Shown one piece after another: positions 13,245-21,241 of a stretch of 64,000 nt of DNA. The notes under the pieces were generated by a model. The model searched no databases and was not told the origin of the DNA. It saw only the letters and a program-made list of their open reading frames with translations. How positions within the stretch are numbered: the first letter of the stretch is position 1; every line of letters begins with the position of its first letter. The translations under genes and the position numbers were made by a program. The DNA comes from an archaeon (lineage in GTDB: Archaea; Iainarchaeota; Iainarchaeia; Iainarchaeales; 0-14-0-20-34-12): assembly GCA_038046645.1 (NCBI GenBank), contig JBBSVU010000014.1, positions 1,512 through 65,511 of the forward strand, written 5' to 3'.

Positions 13245-13314
13245 ACAATTTTCTCTTTCTTCTTTGAATAAAATATTTATTCTTTCTCTTTCGCAAAGAG
13301 AAAGAAAAAAGATT
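13245..13314. repeat. degenerate half-copy of the polypurine/polypyrimidine hairpin element, abutting the tRNA-Leu 3' end
   Basis: TTTTCTCTTTCTTCTTTGA...then a 12-bp hairpin TTCTTTCTCTTT-CGC-AAAGAGAAAGAA (13280-13306), 8 nt from the tRNA discriminator base. Confidence 0.45.
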
Positions 13315-14545: not shown

Positions 14546-15499
14546 TTAGTTTCTTACAATGTGCGTTCCTGCATTTCCTTCCACTGCTTGCATTAATTTA
14601 TCAATTGAAGTAATTATAACTTGTTTTCCGCCTTTTTCAAGGAAATCAACTGCTGCTTCAATCTTTGGACCCATGCTTCCAGCAGGGAAATGCCCTTGCT
14701 TCAAATAATCCTTTGCTTCGTTCAACGTAATTTTATCTAATTGTTTTTGTTGAGGAGTATTAAAATTTAAGCAAACTTTTTCCACCCCTGTCAAAATAAT
14801 TAGTTGATCCGCTTTAATTTGGGAGGCTAAAAGTGCAGAAGCCCTATCCTTGTCAACAACACCGTCAATGCCTTCTAATCTTCCATCTTTTTCATAATAA
14901 ACAGGCATTCCTCCCCCGCCGCAAACAACAGGAATAATGTTTGAATCGACCAATTTTTTTATTGTTTCTTTTTCAACAATATCTTTTGGAATTGGGCTTG
15001 GGACTACTCTTCTAAAACCTCTGCCAGAATCCTCAATAAAAACCATTTTTTCGGTATTCTCTTTTGATTTAATTTTCTCAACCTGCTCTTTTGTGTAAAA
15101 TGGGCCAATTGGTTTTGACGGATTTATTACATTAAGGTCATTTTTATCACAAACAACCTGGGTAAGCAAGCATACAACCTTTCTTTTAATTCCTTGCTGC
15201 TTCAATTTGTTCTGCAAGGTTTGTTCAATCATATAGCCTATCTCGCCTTCAGATTCCGCTACTGCTACACCTAATGGAATGTAATATGCCTTATCCAGTG
15301 CTGCTTCAGTCCTGATCATTATATTTCCAACCTGGGGGCCATTTCCGTGTGTAATTGCCAATTTGTAGCCTTTTTTAATCAAAGGAATAATTCCTTCAGC
15401 AGCTGCCCTTGTGTTTGCAAACTGCTCATACACTGTACCGTACTGACCTTTCCTAATCAGGGCATTTCCGCCCAATGCTAAAACTATTTTAGTATTCAT
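14546..15499 (-). CDS. arcC: carbamate kinase
   Basis: IVLALGGNALIRKGQ, ITHGNGPQVGN, VVCGGGGMPV. 317 aa, full length. Confidence 0.9.
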   Translation of the reverse strand: MNTKIVLALGGNALIRKGQYGTVYEQFANTRAAAEGIIPLIKKGYKLAITHGNGPQVGNIMIRTEAALDKAYYIPLGVAVAESEGEIGYMIEQTLQNKLKQQGIKRKVVCLLTQVVCDKNDLNVINPSKPIGPFYTKEQVEKIKSKENTEKMVFIEDSGRGFRRVVPSPIPKDIVEKETIKKLVDSNIIPVVCGGGGMPVYYEKDGRLEGIDGVVDKDRASALLASQIKADQLIILTGVEKVCLNFNTPQQKQLDKITLNEAKDYLKQGHFPAGSMGPKIEAAVDFLEKGGKQVIITSIDKLMQAVEGNAGTHIVRN

Positions 15500-15500
15500 G

Positions 15501-15700
15501 CCAATCCTTTTCTTTTTTAGAAAAAAAGAAAAGTCTTAGGCCTATTCCAAAAGAAAAAACTGAAATAGTTAGCTTTTCTTTTCTTTCTTTTGATATGCTA
15601 CATTTCCAAATAAAATTCCTATGGAATTTTATTGGACCAGTAAAATTCTACGAATTTTACTTGGTTCTTTCTTTTCTTTGCGAAAGAAAAGAAAGAAAAG
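15501..15700 (+). repeat. full-length extragenic copy of the hairpin element (copy C) with two inserted short hairpins
   Basis: CCAATCC-[TTTTCTTTTTTAGAAAAAAAGAAAA]-GTCTTAGG, then CCAAAAGAAAAAAC...TTTTCTTTTCTTTCTTTTGA. Short hairpins at 15608-15633 and 15640-15660. Then CTTTCTTTTCTTT-GCG-AAAGAAAAGAAAG (15667-15695). Confidence 0.7.
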
Positions 15701-15706
15701 GTGCAA

Positions 15707-15924
15707 CGCTGGGGGCGAGATTTGAACTCGCGCGGGCTTGCGCCCAACAGCTAGCTGCCATTTTGTTCTGCCAAAAGAAAAACAGGAACTATTTATTAAT
15801 TATGAATACATTGAATTAAATTAGTTCTCTTTTCTTTTGGCAACCTACATTTTCTTTTCTCTTTTTAAGAGAAAAGAAAAGGCGGTAGCAGGCTGTCGCC
15901 TTAACCGGACTGGGCCACCCCAGC
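15707..15924 (-). tRNA. tRNA-Ser(GCU) with 133-nt intron at the canonical 37/38 position
   Basis: 5' exon 15886-15924, 3' exon 15707-15752. Acceptor GCTGGGG/CCCCAGC, anticodon loop CTGCTA|A, variable arm TGGGCGCAAGCCCGC, T arm GCGAG-TTCAAAT-CTCGC, discriminator G. Loop CUGC pairs with intron-3' GCAG (BHB-like). Confidence 0.9.
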
Positions 15925-15962
15925 TTTTTGATACTAAAAAAGGTTGCTTAATCTTTAAAATG

Positions 15963-16640
15963 CTATTTATCTTGAGAAATTAGGCTTTGAAGGCTTTCCC
16001 TTGGCAGCACAATGCCTGTTTTCATTCCTTCCCTGACCCTTACTAATTTCCTATCCTTTAAAGAAAATACCCTAGAAAAAGGTTCTATTGGCAATACTAT
16101 GGTTCCTCTTTTATGAGCGGTCTTTCTTGCTTCATTATCAAATCTAATTGTAACTTTATCTTCACCAACTGAAACTGCATGTCCCCTGTATCTTTTCCCA
16201 TTTAAGTTAGCCTCTACTCTTTGGTTAGGATTTACTTCAAAAAACCTGGCATACCTTAATTCAGGCTTTCTATTGCATAGATCAACAAGCTCTTCAATAT
16301 TCCTTACTGAAAAATGTTCTGGCCTAAGCTCAGAAGGTTTCATTAAATCCGAAAATCTTCTTAATAATTTTGTGAAATTTCCGCCATTAAGCAAAAGTGC
16401 CCTATTGGCATTTGAAAGCAATCTTCTTGCACTAAATTTACTTAAATCAGGTATTACGGCACATAATTCATCTGCGCGTTTTTTAGGAAGAAGCCTAAGC
16501 TTTTCATCAGGGGCAATCTTGGTAGGCATAACAGTTCCCTTTCTTAATAAAGATATTCTTGAAAACCTTCGTGTAGCCCATTTGCTTGCTCTGGTTAATC
16601 TGGGTTTTGAGGGTTTTTTAATCACCGGTTTTGCAGGCAT
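15963..16640 (-). CDS. hypothetical protein, Arg/Lys-rich N-terminus
   Basis: 225-aa ORF with no recognisable motif. Its Arg-rich composition differs from the Lys/Glu/Ile-rich neighbours. Confidence 0.5.
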   Translation of the reverse strand: MPAKPVIKKPSKPRLTRASKWATRRFSRISLLRKGTVMPTKIAPDEKLRLLPKKRADELCAVIPDLSKFSARRLLSNANRALLLNGGNFTKLLRRFSDLMKPSELRPEHFSVRNIEELVDLCNRKPELRYARFFEVNPNQRVEANLNGKRYRGHAVSVGEDKVTIRFDNEARKTAHKRGTIVLPIEPFSRVFSLKDRKLVRVREGMKTGIVLPRESLQSLISQDK

Positions 16641-21017: not shown

Positions 21018-21241
21018 GGACCCGTAGCTCAGTCTGGAATCAGAGCAATTCCCTCCTAAACCAAGCCTTTTTCTTTTAGGAAAAGAAAAAGGCTAGGCAT
21101 TATCCAAAAAGAAAACTAATAAATTATACTTAAACAGTTCTTTTTCTTTTGGGGTAACCCTAGACCTTTTCTTTTTCTTTTTAAGAAAAAGAAAAGGGTT
21201 GGGCAAGGAAGAGGTCCTGGGTTCGAATCCCAGCGGGTCCG
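21018..21241 (+). tRNA. tRNA-Arg(CCU) with 147-nt intron at the canonical 37/38 position
   Basis: 5' exon 21018-21058, 3' exon 21206-21241. Acceptor GGACCCG/CGGGTCC, D arm GCTC..GAGC, anticodon loop CTCCTA|A, T arm CTGGG-TTCGAAT-CCCAG, discriminator G. One A.G mismatch at 27:43. Confidence 0.9.

Follow-up and report, generated by a model that had tools for sequence, protein, structure and literature searches.

Identity of the tRNA-Ser(GCU) gene

In a small groundwater archaeon, a tRNA-Ser(GCU) gene is interrupted by 133 nt of polypyrimidine and polypurine hairpins, which raises the question of what this insert is and whether the gene that carries it is still working. The gene lies in the window (the whole 64,000-nt stretch of DNA analyzed, to which all positions refer), and the assembly comprises 1.17 Mb with a completeness of 89%. 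ARAGORN in intron mode places tRNA-Ser(gct) i(40,133) at exactly 15707–15924 on the minus strand. Exon 1 (15886–15924, minus strand) contains positions 1–37, ends with CUGCUA, and is identical in the congener G001. Exon 2 (15707–15752, minus strand) contains positions 38–73 with the discriminator G73 and without an encoded CCA. The joined exons, 85 nt in total, form the class II tRNA-Ser(gct) cloverleaf in the ARAGORN model, including a 7-bp acceptor stem and a long variable arm. The 133-nt intron (15753–15885, minus strand) is situated between positions 37 and 38, the canonical site. An earlier note, made from the sequence alone, had assembled a class II tRNA-Ser(GCU) from two exons around a canonical-position intron, and ARAGORN arrives at the same borders. 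Because of the intron, the gene is missed by default ARAGORN and by the Rfam tRNA model.

Either exon is found once in the 1.17-Mb assembly, and a search of this 89%-complete assembly for a second gene with a GCU anticodon, intron-less or other, returned none; 15707–15924 is the sole AGC/AGU (AGY) decoder of the assembly. The case that the earlier note had named against itself, namely a second intact intron-less tRNA-Ser(GCU) that would make this locus a pseudogene, does not occur here. AGT and AGC together account for 19.9 per 1000 codons in 539 long ORFs. Since AGY codons are common and are served by a single tRNA-Ser(GCU), the gene is taken as functional; its sequence is that of a functional-looking, single-copy gene. 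Upstream, an A/T-rich box, ATTTTAAAGATTA (15949–15961, minus strand), was recognized by reading the sequence 25–37 nt from the tRNA 5' end; it is identical in G001 and is likely an archaeal promoter. A scan for sigma-70 promoters and intrinsic terminators gave nothing above chance level. A 74-aa plus-strand ORF (15595–15819) was rejected as spurious, running antisense across exon 2 and the hairpins.

Architecture of the intron

The intron alone folds at −42.3 kcal/mol in RNAfold, compared with −20.3 ± 3.2 kcal/mol for shuffled sequences (z = −6.9; 0 of 200 shuffles as good), and the fold of the whole gene reaches z = −8.7 against shuffles. Two robust hairpins dominate the predicted structure. 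Hairpin 1 (15850–15880, minus strand) has a 14-bp stem, in which the pyrimidine (Y) arm UUUUCUUUUCUCUU (15867–15880) and the purine (R) arm AAGAGAAAAGAAAA (15850–15863) are connected by the loop AAA. Beneath it, a lower stem of ACCGC with GU-A-GGU extends to the 5' splice site. The 11-nt linker UGUAGGUUGCC (15839–15849, minus strand) follows, conserved in the repeat family described below, both in other copies of this genome and in other genomes. The third tract, R3 AAAAGAAAAGAGAA (15825–15838, minus strand), is by sequence reading an exact mirror, that is the reverse and not the complement, of the R arm AAGAGAAAAGAAAA. This mirror relation of the second purine tract to the purine arm of the hairpin, the most unusual feature of the intron, had been overlooked in the earlier note.

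Hairpin 2 is a long-range stem, UGCCAAAAGAAAAGA / UUUUUCUUUUGGCA, which closes on an AU-rich loop with a small inner stem (15783–15824, minus strand). Its 3' strand is the pyrimidine tract Y4 UUUUUCUUUUGGCA (15769–15782, minus strand), paired in the RNAfold prediction with UGCC plus R3. The last 16 nt form a host-specific tail GAACAAAAUGGCAGCU (15753–15768, minus strand), of which GCAG pairs with C32–C35 and CU joins A38 in the 3' bulge of the splicing motif. Both structural elements already proposed for the intron are recovered by the fold: the 12-bp hairpin is contained in the 14-bp hairpin 1, and the long-range stem around the AU-rich loop is reproduced. The view of the intron as a structured polypyrimidine/polypurine insert and not a spacer agrees with its z-score and its two hairpins.

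From its first nucleotide onward, the intron consists of a full copy of a repeat of about 70 nt, after which come an AU spacer, an inverted partner in truncated form and the 16-nt tail. The module of about 70 nt is 84–93% identical to copies elsewhere in the genome. In G001, the 3' end of the intron holds a complete inverted element, and Y4 aligns with its Y (outer) tract at 28 of 34 positions; Y4 looks like the remnant of such a truncated inverted partner. Rfam searches over 15400–16100, at gathering thresholds and at E ≤ 10, returned no family for the intron or flanks and chance miRNA-like matches to the hairpins. Reading of the 133 nt found no ORF and no box C/D, neither UGAUGA nor CUGA being present, and no C/D family of Rfam matched.

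Splicing motif and splicing enzymes

Around the exon borders, the anticodon stem pairs at 5 of 5 positions and C32–C35 (CUGC) pair with the intron GCAG at 4 of 4. The resulting 4-bp helix is flanked by 3-nt bulges, U36-A37-c1 (UA|c) on the 5' side and c-u-A38 (cu|A) on the 3' side, and the predicted splice sites fall after the second bulge nucleotide. Of the bulge-helix-bulge (BHB) geometry claimed earlier, the CUGC/GCAG helix and the 3-nt bulges UA|C and CU|A stand; what does not stand is the full geometry, the motif having a relaxed or weak form. The outer helix has 5 bp, and the inner helix h' consists of just C-G plus G.U, 2 bp in all. In the unconstrained best fold that RNAfold gives for the anticodon arm together with the intron, the stem, 3' bulge and central helix are retained; in addition, U36.G and A37-U lengthen the central helix, so that the 5' bulge is lost. 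The strict BHB is 7.2 kcal/mol worse (−45.4 versus −52.6 kcal/mol), with a probability of 0.46 for the central helix. The CUGC/GCAG core is also present in the orthologues of G003, G045 and G053, and 3 of its 4 pairs are present in G023.

The splicing endonuclease EndA is encoded by a single gene of 174 aa (PF01974 match). Its best match among solved structures is the α4 enzyme of M. jannaschii, 1a79 (E = 1e-32), and by sequence it is an α4-like enzyme; the adjoining 367-aa ORF was read as trpS. The ligase RtcB is encoded as well (PF01139 match). Against splicing of this intron, the strict BHB is not thermodynamically preferred, by about 7 kcal/mol, and classical α4 enzymes are described as strict (PMC5829648). 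However, α4-type EndAs of DPANN archaea with an L3 loop accompany more disrupted tRNA genes (PMC5829648), and for this reason the relaxed BHB is not regarded as disqualifying. EndA would cut the 133-nt intron at the BHB core formed by the anticodon stem, cuA, CUGC/GCAG and UAc, and RtcB would then ligate the exons. The two self-contained hairpins would simultaneously hold both strands of the splicing motif near each other.

A dispersed repeat with a mirror tract

The repeat unit comprises a pyrimidine/purine hairpin, a conserved linker, and then a purine tract that mirrors the purine arm of the hairpin. At least 33 copies are present in the genome, distributed over about 12 long tRNA introns, tRNA leaders, tRNA trailers and some gene ends. 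ARAGORN in intron mode finds long introns of 86–221 nt in about 12 tRNA genes; besides the present one, these include Pro GGG, Pro CGG, Trp, Gly UCC, Tyr, Asp, Ser GGA, Ser UGA, Ala UGC and Arg CCU. About 10 further long introns contain the same elements in the same order, namely pyrimidine arm, loop, purine arm, TAGG-containing linker and second purine tract, and the module begins 4–9 nt past the splice site. Two parts of the original description have to be narrowed here. The intron is long beside the median of 22–23 nt reported for intervening sequences of Asgard tRNA genes (bioRxiv 10.64898/2026.10.13.758758), but its length is ordinary in this genome; the structured insert is real, but it is not private to this tRNA, being a copy of a dispersed repeat that also occurs outside introns.

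Among 66 Y/R hairpin loci in the genome, 44 have a mirror tract match of at least 0.8. In 39 of the 66 loci, the downstream tract is closer to the mirrored purine arm than to a direct copy of it; in 7 it is less close, and in 20 the two matches tie (sign test, p = 9e-7). A similar bias exists outside this genome, with mirror over direct at 16:5 in loci of relatives fetched around tRNA-Ser genes and at 21:8 (p = 0.012) in 40 model matches from 30 other genomes. Furthermore, in an alignment of 36 copies of the family, compensatory double changes are found at 10 of the 11 predicted hairpin pairs. The mirror bias together with these compensatory changes means that the three tracts co-vary. We know of no replication mechanism that yields mirror repeats; copying alone is therefore insufficient to account for co-varying tracts. 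From the three co-varying tracts, we infer that selection probably acts on the fold of the repeat itself. The hairpin stems are almost purely Watson–Crick; a comparison split by orientation, directed at selection on the RNA level, had few non-Watson–Crick pairs to draw on and showed no excess of G.U over C.A.

In copies taken from 30 other genomes, the linker reads TGTARGTTGCC. A covariance model, R1, was built from the family alignment, with counts that go up to 33 copies per genome. Within the order (Iainarchaeota, DPANN), R1 matches 88 of 151 genomes, and 42 of 66 genera have a match. A census at the level of the phylum contributed no outgroup, all genomes drawn being members of this order. 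Searches of the literature on tRNA introns of DPANN, Diapherotrites or Iainarchaeum, and on such introns together with triplex, mirror-repeat or polypurine sequences, yielded no description of the repeat family.

No Y1 (HUH) transposase (PF01797) was matched at E ≤ 0.1 in the 89%-complete assembly, and the repeat copies have no consistent target-site duplication; both leave a route of movement for the repeat unsupported. The GCUA flanking the insert was considered as a target-site duplication and rejected, as it is absent from orthologues and accounted for by the BHB geometry.

Placement and polarity of the copies

Beside tRNA genes, the hairpin of the repeat lies 0–9 nt from the mature end and the third tract is distal. 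The sense orientation is found in 3' flanks and at the 5' ends of introns, the antisense orientation in 5' flanks and at the 3' ends of introns (Trp, Arg). The copies away from tRNA genes are intergenic, and several abut stop codons (sense) or start codons (antisense). Rfam identified no non-coding RNA adjoining the 15 copies that are not beside a tRNA.

Two further copies lie downstream of tRNA-Ser(GCU). The 3' trailer copy (15573–15701, minus strand) opens with a hairpin (15665–15701) that starts 5 nt past the tRNA 3' end, followed by AU hairpins at 15640–15660 and 15609–15633, then the linker AUGUAGCAUAUC and the mirror tract AAAAGAAAGAAAAGAAAAG. This trailer arrangement of tRNA-Ser(GCU) is also kept in G001. 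On the opposite strand, another copy (15507–15560, plus strand) has its hairpin at 15507–15533, 7 nt from the ATG (15499) of a 317-aa ORF (14546–15499, minus strand).

In the congener G001, a sense-orientation copy is situated inside the RNase P RNA gene. RNase P RNA itself was not found in the present assembly, which is best read as an assembly gap: of 31 genomes searched, 23 have the RNA, among them every one of the 16 with a completeness of 90% or more, and the congener has it too. A role of the hairpins as a substitute for RNase P processing was dropped on the same grounds.

Turnover of the intron among relatives

The orthologous tRNA-Ser(GCU) gene is intronless in at least 10 genomes of the order, and one orthologue has an intron of 20 nt. 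Others contain Y/R-hairpin introns of 61, 69, 72, 95 and 119 nt, and in a few, including that of G017, the intron is long and its hairpins are of another, GC-rich kind. One family (f27) includes both an intron-bearing and an intronless genome. In the case of G001, the intron has 239 nt next to the identical exon 1, and at its 5' end stands a module of another subtype, which has AU hairpins. The G001 homologue of the module described here is inverted and located at the intron 3' end, where 7 nt separate its hairpin from exon 2; the 31-nt hairpin that in G001 comes after the tract aligned with Y4 is missing from the present intron. The T stem has compensatory changes relative to G001, which show purifying selection. 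Judged from these comparisons, the module content turns over fast, even within a genus, and what stays constant is the exons and the BHB core.

Triplex-type features of the repeat

The order of the three tracts matches the signature expected of an intrastrand triplex, which would be class II (purine motif) on the sense strand and class IV (pyrimidine motif) on the complement. Two components of a class II fold are present: a Watson–Crick Y/R hairpin, with its 14-bp stem and covariation at 10 of 11 pairs in 36 copies, and an antiparallel identical third tract, which in this intron is an exact mirror. The third component, short loops, is absent; loop 2 is the 11-nt linker, partly paired as the lower stem, compared with connecting loops of 1–6 nt in ITxF (PMC4666352) and of 0–10 nt in Hoyne et al., as quoted in PMC4666352.

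Purine-motif triplexes reportedly do not arise in RNA and are driven by G.G-C triplets, an A-rich composition being weak (PMC4666352). The tracts of the present repeat are A-rich. In this intron, moreover, R3 is predicted by RNAfold to be Watson–Crick paired with Y4, which excludes the triplex in the intron RNA. No RNA triplex is therefore claimed, given the reported behavior of the purine motif in RNA, the A-rich tracts, the 11-nt linker and the R3:Y4 pairing. The fold of the repeat would most simply be one capable of an intrastrand triplex, for which single-stranded DNA would be the more plausible medium on known chemistry. More plausible than an RNA triplex is a fold adopted in single-stranded DNA, or a structure recognized by some factor.

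Origin and role of the insert

The observations are best accounted for by a working tRNA-Ser(GCU) gene whose intron, spliced by EndA and RtcB, is a tolerated site of a dispersed repeat with a selected fold, a reading to which we assign a probability of about 0.78. The tRNA intron would serve as a landing site that tolerates the repeat because splicing removes it. Against a passenger status of the repeat, the conservation of the linker across the order could equally mean a host function.

As a tentative extension, one that we hold possible but less probable than not, the hairpin and mirror tract may be a selected, triplex-forming boundary module of Iainarchaeota, marking the edges of tRNA exons, other stable RNAs and some genes. 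Such a module would have a role in transcription, in the protection of ends or in processing, and it would also seed and enlarge tRNA introns. If true, it would represent a type of structured nucleic-acid element as yet undescribed for archaea.

A rival proposal treats the repeat as a DNA-level boundary element: bordering highly transcribed units, its intrastrand triplex or H-DNA-like fold in single-stranded or supercoiled DNA would insulate, pause or terminate transcription, or protect the edges, and the intronic copy would be no passenger. Mirror symmetry is indeed the classical class II requirement and the complement has the class IV pyrimidine motif (PMC4666352), and the polarity is symmetrical on both gene flanks and at the starts and stops of protein genes, which suits DNA over transcript. 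The almost purely Watson–Crick stems, with G.U not exceeding C.A among few non-Watson–Crick pairs, and the linker conserved across the order are consistent with the same proposal. Nevertheless, a pyrimidine-rich terminator or insulator 5 nt into the intron would harm an essential tRNA, the A-rich tracts are a weak case of the purine motif, and the 11-nt linker exceeds the loop sizes in the motif definitions; we consider the proposal doubtful.

The intron hairpins could also be a functional RNA module, such as a protein-binding or stabilizing fold, a stable circular intron RNA, or a presenter of the splice sites. The uniform sense orientation of copies near intron 5' ends, the extension of the lower stem of hairpin 1 to the 5' splice site, and the high stability of the folds point in this direction, and the sense copy in the RNase P RNA gene of the congener could belong to the mature RNA. 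However, antisense copies occur next to protein genes and in leaders, many tRNA-Ser(GCU) orthologues work with no intron at all, and the module content varies even within the genus. Simultaneously, the module has neither an Rfam match nor a box C/D, and its stems, with few non-Watson–Crick pairs, lack a G.U bias. A role as functional RNA is accordingly judged unlikely.

It is highly improbable that the exons are separate half-transcripts joined in trans, as in the split tRNAs of Nanoarchaeum, exon 1 having its own 3' element, exon 2 its own upstream promoter in the AU-rich loop, and R3:Y4 bringing the halves together. The element at the intron 5' end does look just like a tRNA trailer element, elements at intron 3' ends elsewhere resemble leader elements, the AU-rich loop contains TATA-like runs, and R3:Y4 provides a 14-bp stem; but the exons are 133 nt apart on the same strand, for which a cis intron is simpler, and orthologues have a 20-nt intron or none. 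That the locus is a tRNA pseudogene disrupted by insertion of the repeat is barely credible, although a repeat copy opens the intron and the prediction favors another fold over the strict BHB, for this is the sole tRNA-Ser(GCU) where AGY codons are common, its exons are intact with compensatory T-stem changes versus G001, the BHB core is kept in orthologues, and about 12 other tRNAs of the genome share the same design.

Comparison with known systems

Canonical archaeal 37/38 BHB introns, such as those of Haloferax volcanii tRNA-Trp and the Methanocaldococcus jannaschii substrates, share with the present intron the position and the 4-bp helix between 3-nt bulges. Cleavage after the second bulge nucleotide is likewise predicted here, and an α4-like EndA and RtcB are encoded. 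In contrast, the present intron has 133 nt, an inner helix of 2 bp, and a dispersed repeat as its bulk; the box C/D guide of the tRNA-Trp intron has no counterpart in it. The position and core motif of the gene are ordinary for the BHB-intron class, its length and content unusual.

In Thermoproteales, transposed introns give unrelated tRNA genes of one genome very similar introns (Fujishima et al. 2010, as cited in PMC4090602). As far as the account in PMC4090602 goes, the present case is alike in that similar intron sequence extends across tRNA genes, implying spread at the DNA level after the tRNAs diverged. Near-identical sequence in genes of different isoacceptors is found here for the module and not for the whole intron. 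Compared with the Thermoproteales introns as presented there, the unit in this genome is a module that also occurs in leaders, trailers, gene ends and the RNase P RNA gene, with a fixed polarity, a three-tract design and a host-specific tail in each intron. The hosts differ as well in that account, DPANN with an α4-like EndA here and TACK with an (αβ)2 enzyme there.

The bacterial PIT, BoxC and TMECO elements (ITxF class II, PMC4666352) resemble the repeat in having a pyrimidine tract, a complementary purine tract and an antiparallel identical third tract. PIT elements similarly have the class IV motif on the complement and are dispersed, intergenic and repeated (PMC4666352). Unlike PIT elements, the present repeat is A-rich and not G-rich, has a conserved second loop of 11 nt, and resides in an archaeal host (PMC4666352). 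For the bacterial elements, no such tight tie to introns and the edges of tRNA exons is described (PMC4666352). REP/BIME repeats and MITEs are, like this family, short non-coding hairpin repeats at gene ends, in tens of copies and both orientations. However, the present family has no RAYT/Y1 transposase and no terminal inverted repeats with target duplications, and its mirror tract and exon-edge polarity rule are without counterpart there.

The locus is of interest chiefly for the repeat family and for the light that this family may shed on the growth of tRNA introns. For the gain and enlargement of archaeal tRNA introns, one lineage presents a concrete source of sequence, a hairpin repeat with fixed exon-edge polarity. 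The route by which introns arrive was left unresolved by the Thermoproteales work, to the extent covered in PMC4090602, and by the Asgard preprint (bioRxiv 10.64898/2026.10.13.758758). Within this order, the gene of a single tRNA may lack an intron or have one of up to 239 nt, and module swaps separate species of the same genus. The three co-varying tracts are, moreover, a rare natural case of a mirror repeat that is seemingly under selection, and with them the biological use of intrastrand triplex-type folds becomes testable with short oligonucleotides. Finally, since standard tRNA finders and Rfam miss genes of this kind, the tRNA sets of DPANN archaea are under-called.

Copies of the element associated with tRNA genes

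The intron site of tRNA-Ser(GCU) remains occupied in some relatives, with its content replaced. Introns of 70–100 nt are situated at the same site in the fetched loci L014 (positions 1514-1698; from G017, a relative in the same order), L011, and L030, and all are built of GC-rich hairpins unrelated to the pyrimidine/purine (Y/R) element. In the organism's own genome (G000), the tRNA gene at G000:C16:81751-81999 (+), labelled tRNA-Thr(tgt) by ARAGORN with an intron of 161 nt, reads as tRNA-Ser(UGA) from its exons, which contain a long variable arm. The copy of the element in its intron is of the variant form that includes two AU hairpins, as is the copy in the trailer of tRNA-Ser(GCU). A sense-oriented copy of the element is located 3 nt past the 3' end of tRNA-Leu(CAA), at positions 13276-13310 (-) of the window, with the R arm AAAGAGAAAGAATAAA and the mirror tract AAAGAAGAAAGAGAAAA.

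The element in the RNase P RNA gene

The RNase P RNA gene of the congener G001 (locus L165, positions 73-444; 372 nt, 120 bits) also carries the element. The copy (L165 134-200, corresponding to G001:C31:15383-15449) is complete, comprising the hairpin, the linker, and the mirror tract in the sense orientation, and forms a 65-nt insertion within one helix. Archaeal RNase P RNA (RF00373) was not found anywhere in the G000 assembly, and a BLAST search of the G001 gene against G000 matched the repeat and nothing else. This absence is probably an assembly gap, because the RNA is present in 16 of 16 relatives with a completeness of at least 90%.

Paired copies and RtcB

Two copies of the element in inverted orientation are situated between a 491-aa ORF and a 477-aa ORF (window 21066-21198, C14:22577-22709), adjoined by the T-arm-like sequence GGTTCGAATCC; no tRNA was called in this interval by ARAGORN, intron mode included, or by Rfam. 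Two identical copies are also located approximately 19 kb apart in inverted orientation at G000:C6:8277-8313 (-) and C6:27751-27787 (+), both with an additional tandem unit of linker and purine tract; this arrangement suggests that the sequence was duplicated recently or that a segment has been inverted.

The RtcB of G000 is encoded by a 622-aa open frame at G000:C10:44114-45811 (-), in locus L122. Its Pfam match falls into two pieces, corresponding to model positions 1-64 and 46-426, and the approximately 110 additional residues separating them may represent an insertion or a mini-intein.
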